64,000 nt of DNA from Paramuribaculum sp. (GCA_029052015.1 JAIDJW010000033.1:59-64058); one strand, 5' to 3'; positions 44,359-52,791 are shown, counted from the stretch's first letter. The notes: a model not told the origin generated them from the letters alone. Program-made: numbers and translations.

Positions 44359-47130
44359 ATGGAATACAATCATAAAAATATCGAAGCCAAGTGGCAGAAA
44401 TATTGGAAAGAAAACAAGACATACAAAACGGAGACAAAACCGGGCACCAAGAAATTCTATGTGCTTGATATGTTCCCTTATCCTTCCGGAGCGGGACTCC
44501 ATGTTGGTCATCCGTTAGGCTATATAGCATCCGACATATATTCACGCTATAAGCGTCTTCAGGGATTCAATGTGCTTCATCCGATGGGATATGACGCATA
44601 CGGACTCCCTGCCGAGCAATATGCCATCCAGACAGGTCAGCATCCCGAAATAACTACAAAAGTAAATATTGACCGCTACCGCAGTCAGCTCGACAAGATT
44701 GGTTTCTGCTACGACTGGGACCGTGAGGTGCGCACCTGCAATCCCGACTATTACAAATGGACTCAGTGGGCATTCATTCAGATGTTCAATTCATATTACG
44801 ACACCAAAGAATGTAAAGCAAAGCCTATATCCGACCTTGAGAGCCACTTTGCAGCCAAAGGAAGTGAAGGCATATATGCTGCTTGCTCAAAGGATTTGAC
44901 ATTTACCGCTGCCGAATGGAAGGCTATGGATGAAAAGCAGAAGAGTGACACTCTTATGAACTACCGCATAGCTTATCTCGGCAACACTATGGTTAACTGG
45001 TGTCCCAAACTCGGCACAGTGCTTGCCAATGACGAGGTGAGCGAGGGTGTGTCTATTCGCGGAGGTTATCCGGTAGAGCAGAAACTCATGTATCAGTGGT
45101 GTCTGAGAGTATCTGCATACGCCCAGCGTCTTCTTGACGGACTGGACACTGTTGACTGGACAGATTCTCTTAAAGAGACACAGCGCAACTGGATAGGACG
45201 CTCAGAGGGTGCGGAAATGATATTCAAGATGGCTGACAGCGATGTTGAGCTTGAGATATTCACTACCCGCGCCGATACTGTGTTTGGAGTAACATTCATG
45301 GTGCTCGCTCCGGAGAGCGCATACGTGGATATGATAACCGTTCCGGAAAAGAAAGCTGAGGTTGACGCATATATTGCAGCAATAAAGCACAAGACAGAGC
45401 GAGAGAGAATGATTGACAAAAAGGTTACCGGTGTGTTTACCGGAGCATACGCTGTCAATCCTCTTACAGGAGACAAAATACCGGTGTGGGTGAGCGACTA
45501 TGTGCTTGCCGGCTACGGCACAGGCGCTATTATGGCTGTGCCTGCTCATGACAGCCGCGACTACGCTTTCGCCCGCCATTTCAATCTCCCTGTAATTCCT
45601 CTTATCGAAGGAGCCGATGTGAGTGAGGAGAGTTTTGATGCCAAGAGCGGCAAAATGATTAATTCCAAGGGACCGGAGCTTGATCTCAACGGGCTTGAAG
45701 TAAAGGACGCCATTGCTGCCGCAAAGAAATTCATCAGCGAGAAAGGTATAGGCAAAGTGAAGGTGAACTATCGTCTTCGCGACGCCATTTTCAGCCGTCA
45801 GCGCTATTGGGGCGAACCTTTCCCTGTATATTATAAGGAGGGTATTGCCCGGATGATGGATGAAAGCAAACTGCCGCTTCTTCTTCCGGAAGTTGACAAG
45901 TTTCTCCCCACCGAAAGCGGCGAGCCGCCCCTGGGCAGAGCTAAGGACTGGAAAACCGAGGAAGGTTATCCTATAGAGCTGTGCACCATGCCCGGCTTTG
46001 CCGGTTCGTCCGCCTACTATCTGCGCTACATGGATCCCAAGAATGACAAAGCGCTTGTAAGCCCCGAAGCAAACTCCTACTGGAGAAATGTAGACTTATA
46101 TATAGGAGGTACCGAGCATGCAACAGGTCATCTAATCTACAGCCGATTCTGGAACAAATTCCTGTATGATCTCGGCATAGTGTGTGAGGAAGAGCCTTTC
46201 CGCAAGCTCATCAACCAGGGCATGATTCAGGGACGTAGCAACTTCGTGTATCGTATAAAGGATACGAACACCTTTGTAAGCTACGGTCTCAAAGGCAACT
46301 ATGATGTGACTCCCATACATGTGGATGTTAACATTGTGAGCAACGATATTCTTGATATTGATGCTTTCCGCGCATGGCGTCCGGAATTCAAGGATGCAGA
46401 ATTCATTCTGGAGGAAGGCAAGTATGTGTGCGGATATGCTGTTGAGAAGATGTCAAAGTCGATGTTCAACGTAGTCAATCCCGACGATATTGTTGAGCGT
46501 TACGGTGCCGACACTCTCCGTCTCTATGAAATGTTCCTCGGACCTCTGGAGCAGAGTAAGCCTTGGGATACCAACGGTATTGACGGTGTGAACCGCTTTA
46601 TCCGCAAGATGTGGAACCTTTTTTATAAAGGTGACGAGTTTATTGTGACAGATGGCGAACCTACTGCTGACAATCTCAAATCCATCCACAAACTCATAAA
46701 GAAGATTACCGCTGACATAGAGAATTTCTCATTCAATACCTCTATCAGCGCCTTCATGATATGTGTGAACGAACTCACGCAGCAGAAGTGTCATAACCGC
46801 GAGGTGCTTACTCAGCTCGTCATACTTCTTGCTCCTTTTGCTCCCCATGTGTGCGAGGAGCTGTGGCATGCGCTCGGAAACGAAATCACCGTGTGTGACG
46901 CTCAGTGGCCTGTCCACAATGAGGAATATCTGAAGGAAAGCAATGTAACATACGCAGTGTCGTTCAACGGCAAGGCACGCTTCAATATCGAGGTGCCTGC
47001 CGAAATGTCCTCTGACGATGTGCAGAAAGTGGCACTTGCCAATGAAAATGCGGCAAAATGGACCGAAGGCAAACAGATTGTCAAGGTTATAGTTGTGCCG
47101 CGCAAGATTGTCAATGTAGTTGTAAAATAG
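44359..47130 (+). CDS. leuS: Leucine--tRNA ligase
   Basis: [40 protein letters not shown]. Confidence 0.98.
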
Positions 47131-47160
47131 AATACCTGTTTTTCACGTTATACATAAAGT

Positions 47161-47739
47161 ATGACCAAAGAAATAGTATTTGCTACAAACAATAGCCATA
47201 AGCTCAGTGAACTCCGGCGTATAGCCGGAGATTCCTGGCACATATTGTCGCTTGCCGACATCGGCTGCCACGATGATATAGAGGAAACTGCCGACACTCT
47301 CGAAGGTAATGCCATAATCAAGGCACGTTATGTGAAGGAGCATTACGGTTATGACTGCTTTGCCGACGATACCGGCCTCATGGTTGATGCTCTTGGCGGA
47401 GAGCCGGGAGTGTATTCTGCACGGTATGCGGGCAATAATCATGATTCCGCCGCAAATATGAAGTTGCTTCTGGAGAAAATGAAAGGTGTAAAGAATCGTA
47501 CCGCACGCTTCCGCACCGTCATAGCTCTTGCGCAGGGCAGTGATATAAAGATATTTGAAGGCACTGTCGAGGGTGAGATTACCGAAACTCCCGCCGGTTG
47601 CGGAGGATTCGGCTATGATCCTGTGTTCAGACCTCTGGAGAGTGACCGCACATTCGCCGAAATGGATGGTGATGCCAAGAATGCCATTAGTCACCGCGGC
47701 AGAGCCACTGCCGCTCTGATGAAATATCTTCTTGCATGA
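47161..47739 (+). CDS. rdgB: Non-canonical purine NTP pyrophosphatase (RdgB/HAM1)
   Basis: FATNNSHK, ADDTGL, PGVYSARY, GFGYDPVF, KNAISHR. Confidence 0.96.
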   Translation: MTKEIVFATNNSHKLSELRRIAGDSWHILSLADIGCHDDIEETADTLEGNAIIKARYVKEHYGYDCFADDTGLMVDALGGEPGVYSARYAGNNHDSAANMKLLLEKMKGVKNRTARFRTVIALAQGSDIKIFEGTVEGEITETPAGCGGFGYDPVFRPLESDRTFAEMDGDAKNAISHRGRATAALMKYLLA

Positions 47740-50111
47740 GACGTCTTGTAGTTTTTTTTGCGGCAATTATGACTATAGTTGCTGTATGTGCGCAGATTCC
47801 TGTAGGAAGCTGGAAGATTTATCCGTCTTTTACGCGTCCGGCAGGGCAAGTGGTTGAAACATCCGCTAAAGTTTTCTATACAAGCGGAGGAAGCCTCTTT
47901 TCTTACGATAAGGAAACTCAAGAGAATCTAGCCCATACGGTGGACAACGGACTAAGTGATTATAAGATAGGTAAAATTCTCGTTCATCCCGATTTCAATC
48001 GTCTGGCTGTGTGCTATGAAAACGGTAATATAGACATTTTAGGCGATGATGGCTCGGTTGTAAACCTTAGCGACATAAAGGATGCATCTGTAAGCGGTGA
48101 CAAGAATATAAATGATGTATCGTTTGACGGAGAGGCGATGTATATTGCCACACAGTTCGGTATATTGATATACGATATCAAGGCAAAAAAAGTAATTGAC
48201 AGTGTTGTTTTCGGTTATCCTGTGCCGGCCATAGCTGTTTGTGACGGATATATATATGTTTCAGCTGAAAATCAGCTCAGAAGTCTGCCTATAGGCTCAA
48301 AACTGAAAAATAATGATGCCTGGAAAGTCATGGATGATGTTCAAGGCATCATAGAGCTTGCAAGAGCCGCTGACGGATTATTATACGGACGTGACAGCAG
48401 TATGGCTTATAAAATAAGCACCGATAATGGAAATATAGTGTCGGTTGACAAATATGGCTATTGCTCTATGCCTTTTATTTATGGCAGTGACAAAGTGTAT
48501 TTGTCAAACGGTATCAGTGTGTATTCTGACGGTGCTTATAAAACAGTGCCGGAAAGTGTCTATTATAACATATTCGGAGGTCTTGACCCGGCTTCATGTC
48601 TGTGGACTCTTGACAACGACGGTATAAGCTGTTTGGTCAACAATAATAATGATTGGACAATAGTTACGGAGCGTTTTCTTCCATACTCCCTTACCGTGCG
48701 TGAGGCAGCTTTTATTATTCCAGATAGAAGCGGTGAAAAGATATATTTTACTAATCTCGGACCAACTGTATACAGAAATATAGCAGGTACTGAAGAAATA
48801 GGATTGCATACATTTCAGATGACTTCAAGGCTTTATGACGGAGAAATCGAAGATGTTGCGGCAAAAAATGTAGTTCCCGGCGAAATATCCAAATACTACC
48901 AGCCCGGGCGCGATGGAAGAGCTGCGGCTACCACGCGTGTTGCCGAGGATCCTGAAGATGCTGCTACATATTTTATAGGTACCGGCAATGACGGACTATA
49001 CAAAGTCACTGCAGGAGAGTATATGGGACGTTATGATGCCTCAAATGCCCCTATGGGCACACCTTATGGAAGTCGTGTATATGAAGTGGTCACAGACCGT
49101 GCAGGCAACCTGTGGGTAGGCGCTGACGGATTGGATGAAAATCATTGTGTGATGGTGCTTCCGGCAGCAAAAAGAAAACTGGCACCGGCAGAGATAAAAC
49201 GCGAGGACTGGATTGTGCTTAATCTTGACGGATTTACAAATTCAGCCGACATACGCATATATCCATGTACAAAATCCGATTTTGTATTTATATTTTCCGG
49301 ACTATATCAAGGAGGTCTTGTGTGCTACGATACATCAGGCACATACGACACATTTAATGATGACCGGGTAATATTTCATCAGAGACTTACAGACACTGAC
49401 AGCAAAACATACAATCCCATCCGTATATCATCGATAGCCGAGGATGCAGAGGGCAAAGTGTGGATAGGCACAAGCGAGGGTATATTTGAAATATATGACC
49501 CGACTCGTGCCATATCGCCTGAAATGACTGTCAAACATCTGAAAATAAATCATGACGACGGCACCGGTCTTGCCGATTACCTTGCCGGCACAGATCTTGT
49601 GCTTGATATCTGCGTTGACGGCGCAAACCGCAAATGGATTGCGACTGAAGGCTCCGGAGTCTATCTTGTAAACGCTGCAGGCAATGAAATACTCAAACAT
49701 TTTACTTCATCCAATTCTCCTCTGCCTTCGCAGAGAGTGAATGCCGTGTATGCGTCAAAAACAAGCAATTCGGTATTCTTAGCTACTCCTCAGGGAGTGA
49801 TGGAATATGGCGGAGACTCTTCGCAACCTGCCCAGGATTACAACTCATTGCGTGTTTATCCCAATCCGGTCACTCCTGATTATGGCGGTGACGTCACTAT
49901 CGACGGTCTTATGGAAGCGTCACTTGTCAAGATTGCCGACTCGGCCGGAGCTGTTGTATGGCAGGGTAGGGCAGAAGGTGGAATGTTAGTGTGGAATGTG
50001 ACAAACAGCGCCGGGAAGAGGGTTAAAACCGGAGTTTATTATATCTTTGCATCGCCGTCGCATGGCGATGGTGGAAAGGGAGCTGTTGCGAAGGTCATGG
50101 TAGTGAACTGA
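47736..50111 (+). CDS. porZ: T9SS attachment-complex component PorZ-like beta-propeller protein
   Basis: Signal peptide, QIPVGSW start, propeller repeats (GNLWVG, GKVWIGT, NRKWIAT) and a CTD (VYPNPV...GKRVKTGVY...KVMVV). Confidence 0.82.
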   Translation: MRRLVVFFAAIMTIVAVCAQIPVGSWKIYPSFTRPAGQVVETSAKVFYTSGGSLFSYDKETQENLAHTVDNGLSDYKIGKILVHPDFNRLAVCYENGNIDILGDDGSVVNLSDIKDASVSGDKNINDVSFDGEAMYIATQFGILIYDIKAKKVIDSVVFGYPVPAIAVCDGYIYVSAENQLRSLPIGSKLKNNDAWKVMDDVQGIIELARAADGLLYGRDSSMAYKISTDNGNIVSVDKYGYCSMPFIYGSDKVYLSNGISVYSDGAYKTVPESVYYNIFGGLDPASCLWTLDNDGISCLVNNNNDWTIVTERFLPYSLTVREAAFIIPDRSGEKIYFTNLGPTVYRNIAGTEEIGLHTFQMTSRLYDGEIEDVAAKNVVPGEISKYYQPGRDGRAAATTRVAEDPEDAATYFIGTGNDGLYKVTAGEYMGRYDASNAPMGTPYGSRVYEVVTDRAGNLWVGADGLDENHCVMVLPAAKRKLAPAEIKREDWIVLNLDGFTNSADIRIYPCTKSDFVFIFSGLYQGGLVCYDTSGTYDTFNDDRVIFHQRLTDTDSKTYNPIRISSIAEDAEGKVWIGTSEGIFEIYDPTRAISPEMTVKHLKINHDDGTGLADYLAGTDLVLDICVDGANRKWIATEGSGVYLVNAAGNEILKHFTSSNSPLPSQRVNAVYASKTSNSVFLATPQGVMEYGGDSSQPAQDYNSLRVYPNPVTPDYGGDVTIDGLMEASLVKIADSAGAVVWQGRAEGGMLVWNVTNSAGKRVKTGVYYIFASPSHGDGGKGAVAKVMVVN

Positions 50112-50137
50112 ACGGTCCTTTATAAGGTTTTAAAAAT

Positions 50138-50665
50138 ATGGAAAACGGACTTTCTTATAGAAATGAGGATGACAGATGCTATGGTGTAACAGGCATGGCA
50201 GTAGGCATTTTGGTGTTTAACGGTGAGGACATGCTCAGTTCGGTTTGTCTTGACGCCGAGCCTCACAGCATGATTGAAATGGAGGATATGTTTTATTTCA
50301 ATGGTAATCCCGGATTGTCGGCAAAATCTGCCTGGAATCGCATAAAAGCCAATTTTGACCTCAGTGTGGCAATGCTTATATCAAACATGATGTGTCGCAG
50401 CATGGTGCTTGATCATGAGACCATAGCGCCCGATAAGCGAAAGATTGTCCATGATATAGTGGCCGAGGAGGGCAAAGAGACCTGCGGCCTCGATGATGAC
50501 GAGATAAATAAGATTTTTGATAAGGAATACACTATTCTGTTCCGTGTATTCAATCATCAGGGAGTCCATAGCGTTGTCCATGACTTTGCCGATACTCTCA
50601 AGCGCCGCCGCCGCATGAGCCGTCTCGAGATTCTTGAGCAGCTTCGTGCATTGTCACTGCTCTGA
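50138..50665 (+). CDS. Hypothetical protein resembling an FtsH (M41) protease domain lacking HExxH
   Basis: 175-aa ORF downstream of porZ. The helical pattern similarity is described under findings. Confidence 0.7.
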   Translation: MENGLSYRNEDDRCYGVTGMAVGILVFNGEDMLSSVCLDAEPHSMIEMEDMFYFNGNPGLSAKSAWNRIKANFDLSVAMLISNMMCRSMVLDHETIAPDKRKIVHDIVAEEGKETCGLDDDEINKIFDKEYTILFRVFNHQGVHSVVHDFADTLKRRRRMSRLEILEQLRALSLL

Positions 50666-51319
50666 TTATTTCAGTCCGTCAATAACTCTTCTCAGATATA
50701 CCGGTGATTCGGGGCCGAGATTGAAAAGCAGGTCAAGAATACTAAGATTTGAAATAAAGCCCAATTCTGAGGCTCTGACCTGATAGTAAGGTGTCACTTC
50801 AGCCAGTGATGAGAAATTGCATCTACGATGGTCTAAAACACCTTCAGGCAGTTCCTGTGATTCAATATACATCACTTCGCTGTCGATTCCTAAAAGTGTG
50901 CGCACTCTCAAGTCTATTGCCGCATTGTGAGTTGTCAGACTTGTACCGCAAACATTTTTCTTGAAAAAATCAGCGAAGGAATCGATATAAAACTCAAAAA
51001 AGGGTGTGCGTCCGTATGCCGATTCAAGAGCCGTGAGCTGTATGTTCCACCAGTTGCCGTGGTCGGATACGGTTATATCGTTCCATGAGGCAGCTGACGA
51101 TGATTCAGGTTTTGAAACAGGCATAGTGAGTTCAAGCACGCCTCTTGTGTCGGCTATAGACATACGGTGGGTCGACTTGAAGCGTTTGTCATACTTCATG
51201 CCGTTGTGGATAAGCACATGCGAATGCGCAGCAAGCACCGCATAGTATGATATGCTGCCGAAATATTGTGTAGGCAGCGCTATAGTGCGGTCAGTGTAGC
51301 GGATAAGGGGTGAAGGCAT
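50666..51319 (-). CDS. WbqC family protein
   Basis: LESAYGRTPFFEFY, YYQV and NLSILDLLFNLGPE; usual lepB neighbour. Confidence 0.9.
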   Translation of the reverse strand: MPSPLIRYTDRTIALPTQYFGSISYYAVLAAHSHVLIHNGMKYDKRFKSTHRMSIADTRGVLELTMPVSKPESSSAASWNDITVSDHGNWWNIQLTALESAYGRTPFFEFYIDSFADFFKKNVCGTSLTTHNAAIDLRVRTLLGIDSEVMYIESQELPEGVLDHRRCNFSSLAEVTPYYQVRASELGFISNLSILDLLFNLGPESPVYLRRVIDGLK

Positions 51320-52791
51320 CAGAAACCAGAGTTGGCGTCTTTGAGTATTCGGTTCCAGCGTATTCCTCCGCTGAAAATACCTTTGTCCTTGTCAAATGAC
51401 ACAAGCACTCTCATAGGTTTGCCCACTATATGGTCTTCCGGAACAAAACCCCAGTAGCGCGAATCAAGCGAATTGTCGCGGTTGTCGCCCATCATGAAGT
51501 AATAGTCCATCTTGAAGGTGTATTCATCAGCGGCTTTTCCGTCAATATAGACTGTGCCGTCTGCTCCGATATATGAGTCAGGATGTCCCTCGTAATTTCG
51601 TATGGCTCGGTTATACACAGCCCAGGTGTACCAGTCAAGTTTTATAGACTCACCCTTTTTGGGTATCCATAGTTCGCCGTAATTTTCACGGGTCCAGTTG
51701 CGGGCTATACCTTCAGGGAAAAGAAATTCGTCATTTTTGACAGGTGCCTTGGTAGCAGCTATGACAATAGGGCTCTCCTTTATATTTGCGAGCATGGCAG
51801 GGGTAAGCGGAGCGCCATAAATAGGCTGATTGCTATAGATATCGAATCCTGCAGCACGGAGCATTGCGGTATCTTCCGGCTCAATATCTGCCATTCTGCG
51901 GTCATCAACAGCAATCTCGAATTCCTCCCATTGCTGGTCGAGCAGGGGATATTTGGTCTGGAACCAGTATTTGAACTGCACATTCTCAGGCAGTGGCTGC
52001 GCAACTCCGTTTATATATATAATGCCGTCTTTTATCGCCAATCGCTCTCCAGGGAGCCCGACTGCACGCTTTACATAGTTTTCGCGACGGTCAACGGGAC
52101 GATACATCGGTTCGCCGAATTCTTTAACGTTCTGTTTTATAAACTCTTCGCCAAATAGTTTTTTTACCGTATAATAATCGGCACCTTTGAGCTGTGAGGT
52201 GCTGCCAGGCAGCATAAGTTTGGGCAGAATGGTGTCGCCTGCCGGAAAGTTGAACACCACAATATCGCCGGTCTTTACATTACCGAATCCTTTGAGACGT
52301 TTGTATTTCCATTGCGGATTGTCAAGATAGCTCTTGGTGTTTATTATAGGAAAGGTGTTCTGAACCAGTGGAAAATGCACCGGAGTCATTGGCACACGCG
52401 GACCATACGCCATTTTATTTACCCACAGATAGTCGCCTACAAGCAATGATTTTTCAAGCGATGAGGTTGGAATCTGATAGTTCTGTCCAACGAAAGTGAA
52501 CACGAAGTACACGAGAATCAGGGCATATACAATGGCATCTACCCAGCTCATTATTGATTTGGTGACCTTGCTTTTGCTCTTTTTCCACCAGGTGAAGGGA
52601 ATATATCCGGTGATGTATATATCAAAGAGAAGAATCAGAAAAATGGCTACCCACCAGCTTCCGAGCCACGCCACCCATGCGAGAAATATTGCGGCGACGA
52701 TGCCGAAACGTATCCAGCGTGTAGTCTTTACTTCGGATAAGCGTTTTTTTAAATCTTCCTTGAAATTGAATTTTTTTGAGGTCGGAGTCAT
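51319..52791 (-). CDS. lepB: Signal peptidase I
   Basis: IPTSSLEKSLLVGD, GDIVVFN, YVKRAVG, MMGDNRDNSLDSRYWGFVP. Confidence 0.96.
   Translation of the reverse strand: MTPTSKKFNFKEDLKKRLSEVKTTRWIRFGIVAAIFLAWVAWLGSWWVAIFLILLFDIYITGYIPFTWWKKSKSKVTKSIMSWVDAIVYALILVYFVFTFVGQNYQIPTSSLEKSLLVGDYLWVNKMAYGPRVPMTPVHFPLVQNTFPIINTKSYLDNPQWKYKRLKGFGNVKTGDIVVFNFPAGDTILPKLMLPGSTSQLKGADYYTVKKLFGEEFIKQNVKEFGEPMYRPVDRRENYVKRAVGLPGERLAIKDGIIYINGVAQPLPENVQFKYWFQTKYPLLDQQWEEFEIAVDDRRMADIEPEDTAMLRAAGFDIYSNQPIYGAPLTPAMLANIKESPIVIAATKAPVKNDEFLFPEGIARNWTRENYGELWIPKKGESIKLDWYTWAVYNRAIRNYEGHPDSYIGADGTVYIDGKAADEYTFKMDYYFMMGDNRDNSLDSRYWGFVPEDHIVGKPMRVLVSFDKDKGIFSGGIRWNRILKDANSGF

Follow-up and report, generated by a model that had tools for sequence, protein, structure and literature searches.

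A stand-alone protein with a predicted M41 protease-like fold and no HEXXH motif, encoded downstream of porZ in Muribaculaceae

What is encoded by the unannotated gene that directly follows porZ in this Paramuribaculum genome, and could it be a protease domain that has lost its activity? The gene is an open reading frame (ORF) of 175 amino acids (aa), which occupies positions 50138..50665 of the plus strand from its ATG start to its stop codon inclusive, according to the ORF listing of the window, by which we mean the whole 64,000-nucleotide stretch of Paramuribaculum sp. DNA analysed here (GCA_029052015.1 JAIDJW010000033.1:59-64058). An earlier note on this DNA had placed the ORF behind porZ and had read it, by eye, as a stand-alone, catalytically dead relative of the M41 protease domain of FtsH. 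Its position is as described there: the ORF begins 26 bases past the porZ stop, and its start and end both coincide with M41 domain boundaries. Our analysis shows that the ORF is a real, single-copy gene under purifying selection, and its product is very probably an M41-derived pseudo-protease. The complete explanation, in which this dead domain would act by binding, with FtsH or its substrates as the most plausible partner, appears to us evenly balanced between holding and failing.

The structural part of the answer comes from two predicted models. Model 1, an AlphaFold2 prediction of the window protein based on an alignment of 31 family members (A1), reached a predicted local distance difference test score (pLDDT) of 91.9 and a predicted template modelling score (pTM) of 0.88. 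It consists of a helix (residues 10-26), two strands (33-37 and 46-48), helices at 62-91, 98-116, 120-139 and 141-157, a short strand (159-161) and a C-terminal helix. In a Foldseek search of the PDB, 26 of the 27 matches listed for this model were FtsH, chloroplast FtsHi, YME1 or AFG3L2 (probability 0.72-1.00, query TM score 0.42-0.62), and the single other row had a probability of 0.06. VIA-align, an aligner independent of Foldseek, was run against 48,161 representative chains and placed eight FtsH or FtsHi protease domains on top (Z 9.3-12.0, root-mean-square deviation 4.0-5.0 Å), with 137-156 of the 175 residues aligned, from model residues 1-8 to 170-175; the ninth row had Z 6.4. Model 2 represents a member 26% identical to the window protein and was built from a 40-sequence alignment (A4) from which the window protein and its close relatives had been left out. 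With a pLDDT of 91.4, it again ranked these eight chains highest (Z 9.9-13.3), ahead of a row at Z 8.0; these values are to be read with the aligner's own note that helical models reach a Z of about 13 without kinship. In a library of viral structures, eight rows had a probability of at least 0.97, six of them named M41 or FtsH, with a 214-aa phage "Peptidase M41 domain-containing protein" among these six. The ESM Atlas neighbours include short-protein clusters (184 and 158 aa) with PF01434, the Pfam family of M41 peptidases, carried by 15% and 56% of their members, and all ten best named matches share this family or its clan, which serves as a lead only, as a third of shuffled proteins also score ten of ten. 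The active-site helix, the hairpin and the helical C-terminal subdomain of M41 are present in both predicted structures, and an M41 fold of the 175-aa protein, as the earlier note had proposed, is supported by the comparisons with both aligners. As a separate observation, both models matched a 131-aa Vibrio cholerae protein of unknown function (5iqj_A) over residues 6/7-154, at Z 6.4; in the list for model 1 this protein heads the rows outside FtsH, and it could be another reduced relative of the fold.

At the sequence level, the Pfam and NCBIfam libraries held nothing above threshold for the 175-aa protein, and rows for NPHI_C, dynein and CHD1 at E 0.08-1 in library and sequence searches were dismissed as noise. 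The kinship with M41 emerged from profile-profile comparison by hhalign, for which an alignment of 35 family members reaching down to 24% identity (A2), more diverse than the shallow A1, was set against 20 FtsH M41 domains (A3), one from the window's own genome (contig 62) and 19 from other genomes of the phylum. Over 61 columns, which place ORF residues 108-170 on M41 positions 133-193, this comparison reached a probability of 79.5% at E = P = 1.5e-5. Its score of 38.6 beats all 92 controls, namely the reversed template (14.0), the reversed query (14.5), 45 single-column shuffles (maximum 21.0) and 45 shuffles of ten-column blocks (maximum 31.6); against the genome's own single FtsH sequence, the A2 profile gave P 0.001. 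Within the segment, L118-D-D-D-E122-I-x-x-I-F-x-x-x-Y aligns on M41 L-I-D-E-E-V-x-x-I-I-x-x-x-Y, and A-D-T-L-K-R-R-R-R-M-S-R-L-E-I on A-D-T-L-I-E-R-E-V-I-F-T-E-D-V. In the wide family (A2 and A4), invariance is limited to the columns of L118 and E122, the latter even at 25% identity, and among the M41 columns paired with them are the invariant D and E of the IDxEV motif. The segment is in register with the structural match, and the similarity to M41 domains over these C-terminal 61 columns is significant and points to homology. It recovers the C-terminal alignment that the earlier note had drawn by eye; the two strings quoted there are found at residues 10-26 (EDDRCYGVTGMAVGILV) and 120-169 (DDEINKIFDKEY...LEILEQL).

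The features of the protein that matter for its interpretation are as follows:

50138..50665, plus strand: the 175-aa stand-alone M41-like protein as a whole (ORF listing, 67 and 83 same-length homologues, median dN/dS 0.19, pLDDT 91.9)
50165..50215, plus strand: residues 10-26, helix 1, putative counterpart of the FtsH active-site helix (model helix 10-26, conservation, extended hhalign alignment)
50183..50197, plus strand: residues 16-20, G-V-T-G-M, at the presumed place of HEAGH (hhalign extension; G16 and G19 invariant or nearly so in A1, A2 and A4)
50234..50281, plus strand: residues 33-48, small beta hairpin, putative counterpart of the FtsH KVTIVPRG edge strands (model strands 33-37 and 46-48, alignment)
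50306..50335, plus strand: residues 57-66, N-P-G-L-S-A-K-S-A-W, loop and helix start apparently opposite FtsH LGGRAAE (conservation, low-confidence part of the hhalign alignment)
50456..50647, plus strand: residues 107-170, C-terminal three helices and short strand, similar to the M41 C-terminal subdomain (hhalign E 1.5e-5, controls)
50600..50623, plus strand: residues 155-162, K-R-R-R-R-M-S-R, basic patch where FtsH has LLEKETL (conservation, segment charge)

What has become of the active site? At lower stringency, the hhalign alignment extends colinearly through the whole domain, at low confidence and without statistical support of its own. In this extension C14-Y15-G16-V17-T18-G19-M20-A21 falls on A-V/Y-H-E-A-G-H-A, so that G16 and M20 stand at the two histidine positions; the strand S-S-V-C-L-D-A falls on K-V-T-I-V-P-R, and L60-S-A-K-S-A-W66 on L-G-G-R-A-A-E, which places the invariant W66 at the glutamate position of the LGGRAAE motif. 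The structural match agrees, as VIA-align pairs model residue 7 with position 409 of the A. aeolicus chain and 414 of 7tdo_A; on the zinc-ligand numbering that we assume, this pairing puts G16 on the first histidine. The replacement of HEAGH by GVTGM, which the earlier note had proposed, is thus recovered by the extension and matched by the structural ranges, at a confidence that stays low. No member of A1 (31 sequences), A2 (35) or A4 has HEXXH at the place of the motif; the consensus there is Y-G-x-A/T-G-M-A. The FtsH segment with the invariant T-G-A-x-N-D (the NDxE segment), whose Asp we take to be the third zinc ligand, falls into an alignment gap, and model 1 has the single, long helix 62-91 in place of the two FtsH helices that flank this segment. 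As far as the alignments place these positions, the protein lacks both zinc histidines, the catalytic glutamate and the third ligand. Since the HEXXH positions and the third-ligand segment appear to be lost, we infer that the protein is not an FtsH-type zinc protease and would act by binding.

Conservation across the family is strongest in three places, the helix from E10 to M20, the loop and helix start from F54 to W66, and the C-terminal helices, including the K-R-R-R-R-x-S-R patch and their Leu-rich end. The highly conserved positions of helix 1 are E10, D11, D12, C14, Y15, G16, T18, G19 and M20. In A1, D39 is invariant, and so are R158 and R162; RR.LS is kept in A2. We also considered a Cys3-His metal site formed by C14, C86, C116 and H140. 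These residues are conserved among the close relatives in A1 and not in the wider family of A2, which argues against a replacement metal site, and the candidate was dropped.

The product has a mass of 20 kDa and a pI of 5.1 and is acidic except for its basic C-terminal segment. The Pfam scan showed no AAA family match, and the ORF has no AAA+ module. The 19-residue Kyte-Doolittle mean peaks at 1.39; by this measure the protein contains no membrane-length hydrophobic segment and no transmembrane part, as had been claimed before, and it has no signal peptide. In sum, the stand-alone, catalytically dead M41-fold pseudo-protease of the earlier note is supported by the two models, the profile match and the lack of HEXXH among the A1 and A2 members.

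The family itself is compact. A word-seeded search found 67 homologues, nearly all of 172-180 aa, which have zero Pfam domains and no name other than "hypothetical protein" (Paramuribaculum and similar records). A second such search, started from a more diverse profile, returned 83 proteins with a conserved length of about 175 aa, none of which (0/83) carries a precomputed Pfam domain; the weakest match has E 5.8e-36 and the range from there to 0.01 is empty, so that the family is sharply bounded. Searching 1.84 billion representatives of any length with the profile returned 214 proteins at E <= 1e-3, and the best 150 of these 214 have 62-238 aa, with no fused form among them. One side observation concerns a homologue without a stop codon on a public contig of an uncultured relative (L073:4986-7073, one of the 76 loci discussed below), which runs in frame into a GH3-family (acyl-adenylate amido-synthetase-like) gene as a 695-aa ORF. 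Its GH3 part opens with a Met of its own, a lost stop or an assembly error is likely, and no such long form occurs among the best 150 of the 214 relatives.

Next, we turned to the distribution of the gene, with genome counts that are samples and a window genome that is 87% complete. A phylogenetic profile, of the kind the earlier note had suggested, was obtained by profile search of whole genomes: the gene was matched in 176 of the 201 genomes of its own family (Muribaculaceae, as named in record titles) and in 137/151 high-quality genomes and 33/35 genera of that family, and 297 genomes representing 136 further families of the order gave no match. It was not found or is rare in three genera (g22 0/8, g34 0/2, g21 1/8). 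Each of the 176 genomes has one match, and only two matches contain an internal stop. The ratio of nonsynonymous to synonymous substitution rates (dN/dS) has a median of 0.19 and a maximum of 0.33 (43 of 120 pairs with dS < 2.5), and the closest pairs range from 0.07 to 0.10. We conclude that the gene arose or landed after porZ in the ancestor of the Muribaculaceae. The titles of 76 species-level loci on public contigs name Muribaculaceae, Paramuribaculum, Duncaniella and Muribaculum, with several labels of metagenome-assembled genomes being loose; five entries with a Muribaculaceae-type context (L044, L051, L061, L068, P0043) are labelled "uncultured Staphylococcus sp.", "Prevotella sp. CAG:1031" or "Firmicutes bacterium" and are probably mislabelled bins.

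A phage collection contained a single match to the 175-aa protein, at 38.5% identity. It lies on a 5.4-kb scaffold from human faeces entitled "UNVERIFIED: Bacteriophage sp." (MT838335.1), and the other ORFs of this scaffold are of the housekeeping type (aminotransferase, PfkB kinase, SIS, thioesterase, FMN_bind, tRNA synthetase). We read it as a bacterial fragment on the basis of these ORFs, and a phage origin of the gene was rejected. The FtsH domain had 33 matches in the same collection, covering the full domain at 37-74% identity and, among the matches listed, annotated as ftsH or metalloprotease or unannotated; these we read as host-like DNA.

As to the genomic neighbourhood, two further features of the window give the context of the ORF:

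47736..50111, plus strand: porZ, the upstream neighbour, a type IX secretion gene (NCBIfam NF052228, 2e-136; Pfam PF21544), directly upstream in 58/76 loci
50666..51319, minus strand: WbqC-like gene, convergent (PF08889, 6.4e-21), downstream and convergent in 19/76 loci

The ORF is the last gene of a same-strand row formed by leuS (44359-47130), a Ham1/RdgB gene (47161-47739), porZ and the ORF itself, and it converges stop-to-stop with the WbqC-like gene. The two stops abut with zero intergenic bases, the ORF ending at 50665 and the neighbour beginning at 50666 (window 50663-50668), and a scan of 47000-52000 found no terminator-like hairpin between the two genes. On the minus strand, a 207-aa ORF (47143-47766) lies wholly over the Ham1/RdgB gene and is most likely a shadow frame. 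Among the 76 loci, the direct same-strand upstream neighbour is porZ in 58, a Bax1-I gene (YccA-type) in six and another gene in 12, and the downstream side is variable. In a quick maximum-likelihood tree, supported by SH-aLRT values only and with the L073 row entered at 690 aa (the read-through ORF), the porZ arrangement occupies all deep branches, and departures from it with the gene retained occur in at least five places. The Bax1-I arrangement forms one clade of seven rows with a support of 100, which indicates a single event; the row argS - Bax1-I (PF01027) - M41-like gene is seen in L028, L029, L031, L035, L043 and L062, and in L069 with an intervening ORF.

How informative is the place behind porZ? 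PorZ is present in 200/201 genomes of the family, including genera where the 175-aa gene was not found. Behind porZ in 10 gene-less genomes and in 30 loci of other families there was no relative of the ORF, the best hidden Markov model E value being no better than 1.5. The sequence continues past porZ in 26 of the 30 loci from other families, and in 17 of these 26 the next same-strand ORF has 229-250 aa (L126, L129-L131, L133, L136-L141, L143, L144, L146, L148, L149, L152); the two that were scanned are RecO. A porZ-recO pairing thus seems to be widespread in the order and to have been replaced by porZ and the M41-like gene in the family of the window, whose genome has a separate recO on another contig. 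The possibility that the ORF is a diverged RecO was rejected, as hhalign against the genome's own RecO gave a probability of 0.12% and P 0.48. We take the position behind porZ to be simply one slot of a mixed housekeeping operon, and the adjacency to reveal little about what the gene does. As a side observation on porZ itself, two full-length tandem PorZ-like genes were seen in several genomes of the family and of the order, namely in L121 (G120:C112) and at places in G112, G133, G154, G161, G098 and G201.

If the protein binds, what could its partner be? The former active-site region is the best conserved part rather than a decaying one, so it is probably still a binding site. The former cleft, in which Gly, Met and Trp now apparently stand where FtsH has His, His and Glu, would engage a partner, and M41-type subunit contacts might do so alternatively or additionally. 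FtsH is the membrane-bound protease that bacteria and organelles universally use for quality control, and the M41 domain is the part that forms its hexameric disc, so that a bare copy could self-assemble or dock on FtsH. As dead paralogues often regulate their active cousins, FtsH would be the most plausible partner; FtsH or its substrates would then be bound, with the protein serving as modulator, decoy or adaptor. That the partner is FtsH, or its pathway or substrates, is an analogy that we put forward tentatively. A narrower form, in which the protein would be a soluble decoy subunit that docks on or inserts into the M41 disc of FtsH, or holds FtsH substrates in its zinc-free cleft, is rather unlikely; if true, the protein would tune the proteolysis of membrane proteins and of the envelope (lipopolysaccharide (LPS), cargo of the type IX secretion system (T9SS)) specifically in Muribaculaceae, and a bacterial AAA protease would for the first time be seen under the control of a dead, motor-less version of its own protease domain. 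A complex prediction with the M41 domain of the genome's own FtsH (from A3) and the 175-aa protein (with A1) had a score of 0.00 and speaks neither for nor against binding. The adjacency to Bax1-I is suggestive in view of E. coli YccA, which binds FtsH and inhibits the degradation of other substrates, as TMBIM5, the mitochondrial relative of YccA, does with AFG3L2 (PMC9379554). We regard the adjacency as a weak hint at the FtsH pathway.

Several results weigh against this explanation. With regard to kinship, PF01434 does not match the 175-aa protein even at E up to 1, whereas the same profile finds the true FtsH of the genome at 1.2e-59; the PDB, searched by single sequence and by the A1 profile, gave no M41 match; A1 compared by hhalign with a single FtsH sequence or with the M41 alignment reached an insignificant probability of 0.5-0.8%; and in Foldseek no PDB match had E <= 1e-3, the best being 1.4e-2. 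The statistical support from sequence is limited to the C-terminal 61 columns, about one third of the protein, with none for the N-terminal two thirds, and the mapping of G-V-T-G-M on HEAGH is built from a low-confidence extension and the ranges of a structural match. With regard to FtsH, all five gene-less Muribaculaceae genomes that were checked have one ordinary FtsH each, which indicates that FtsH does not depend on the gene; the Bax1-I adjacency is a single evolutionary event in one clade, and in the window's genome Bax1-I (G000:C134:10889-11515) and FtsH are each located on another contig.

The kinship results could mean that there is no relation to M41 at all and that a common helical arrangement, or a modelling artefact, has been mistaken for one. 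The absence of an M41 sequence match in the library searches, Foldseek E values of 1e-2 or worse and the Z of about 13 that the aligner's note allows for unrelated helical models would fit this explanation. We consider it very improbable, because two models of members 26% identical to each other place the same eight FtsH/FtsHi chains 3-5 Z units above the next row, the secondary-structure elements follow one another in the same order throughout the domain, the profile-profile match (P 1.5e-5) exceeds 92 controls and keeps the register of the structural match, and the language-model neighbours point to PF01434 independently. Could the scaffold have acquired a new catalytic function instead? E10, D11, D12, D39, D121, E122 and H140 might form a new metal or hydrolytic site, as they are invariant or nearly so in A1, E122 even at 25% identity. 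However, E122 and D120 align with the invariant, non-catalytic IDxEV of true M41 domains, so that the fold explains their conservation, and H140, C14, C86 and C116 are lost in the wider family; a new enzyme is therefore improbable in our view.

More weight belongs to an M41-derived scaffold that is now unrelated to FtsH, a homo-oligomeric or monomeric binder of some other partner, which could be a nucleic acid or another acidic ligand at the K-R-R-R-R-x-S-R patch, or a peptide in the remodelled cleft. The isolation of the family in sequence space (83 matches, the weakest at E 5.8e-36) fits a long independent history, a basic patch is conserved within an acidic protein, FtsH is normal in 5/5 gene-less genomes, and genomic linkage to ftsH was found in none of the 76 loci. 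Yet no nucleic-acid-binding fold or family ranks above the FtsH group among the matches, the protein as a whole is acidic, and dead paralogues commonly act on their active relatives, as a review states (PMC11266112); we therefore regard such an FtsH-independent scaffold as doubtful, though a serious candidate. The position of the gene would instead suggest a cytoplasmic accessory factor of type IX secretion or of anionic LPS (A-LPS) handling that is co-transcribed with porZ. porZ lies upstream on the same strand in 58/76 loci, including the deepest branches (33-35% identity), and the 26-base gap between porZ and the ORF contains no terminator-like site. Nevertheless, PorZ is found in 200/201 genomes and thus also in gene-less genera, ten genomes of which have no related ORF behind porZ; the adjacency is broken in at least five places of the tree with the gene retained; in other families the slot is taken by an ORF of about 240 aa in 17/26 loci, RecO in the two scanned; the operon also comprises leuS and Ham1/RdgB, i.e. 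it is a mixed housekeeping unit; and PorZ works at the cell surface, whereas the 175-aa protein lacks a signal peptide. A role in secretion thus seems quite improbable. The best explanation of the locus, in our view, is an M41-derived dead domain that would act by binding, with FtsH or its substrates as the most plausible partner.

Independent of the partner, a motor-less, zinc-less M41 domain would be a core gene of an abundant mammalian gut family that is so far annotated as "hypothetical protein", and the family merits a profile of its own, which would end its annotation as unknown. If it is true that the protein acts on FtsH, it would represent a new, simple principle of AAA-protease regulation and a handle on envelope proteostasis in Muribaculaceae; if the link to FtsH is false, the M41 scaffold would prove to be reusable for another binding function. 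In literature searches on stand-alone M41 proteins, FtsH pseudoproteases and Muribaculaceae FtsH, none of the titles listed dealt with a bacterial M41 protein that lacks the AAA part.

Among known systems, the closest comparison is with the protease domain of FtsH, YME1 and AFG3L2 (MEROPS M41, PF01434). The 175-aa protein shares with it the predicted fold over 137-163 residues (Z 9.3-13.3), the order of elements from the active-site helix through the small hairpin, helices and short strand to the C-terminal helix, and the L-x-D-x-E-V/I ... Y motif with the C-terminal helices (E 1.5e-5). Unlike these proteases, it appears to lack HEXXH and the third-ligand segment and has neither an AAA+ module nor a transmembrane part, its length falls about 30 residues short of that of the M41 domain and it goes unseen by the Pfam model, and it has the K-R-R-R-R patch where FtsH has LLEKETL; the FtsH holoenzyme (TIGR01241) differs further by its N-terminal transmembrane segments and AAA+ module. 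The chloroplast FtsHi1-5/Ycf2-FtsHi proteins are alike in having M41-type domains without zinc-binding and catalytic residues that work without proteolysis, and their protease-like domains are among the top structural matches (8xkv_F, 8xqw_B, 8xks_B), within 1-2 Z of true FtsH. However, FtsHi proteins keep the AAA+ ATPase and a membrane anchor and form an ATP-driven import motor in a hetero-hexamer, whereas the 175-aa protein is a bare, soluble, bacterial domain. In the part of a 2024 review that we draw on, the chloroplast FtsHi proteins are the only M41 pseudopeptidases listed (PMC11266112). AAA-less solo M41 proteins, such as the 214-aa phage protein and the short ESM Atlas clusters, are likewise free-standing and motor-less, so that motor-less M41 domains are not unique; what is new here is a family that, by its alignments, retains nothing of the site, escapes detection by PF01434 and is near-universal in a gut Bacteroidales family, as a core gene of that family. 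With regard to the proposed role, phage lambda CIII is a modulator of FtsH, and to our knowledge the known FtsH regulators (HflKC, YccA, small peptides) have folds unrelated to FtsH. YccA/Bax inhibitor-1 and HflKC resemble the 175-aa protein in this proposed role only, that is, in binding FtsH and altering degradation; these regulators are membrane proteins or short peptides without homology to it, and none has the M41 fold that is predicted for the protein described here.

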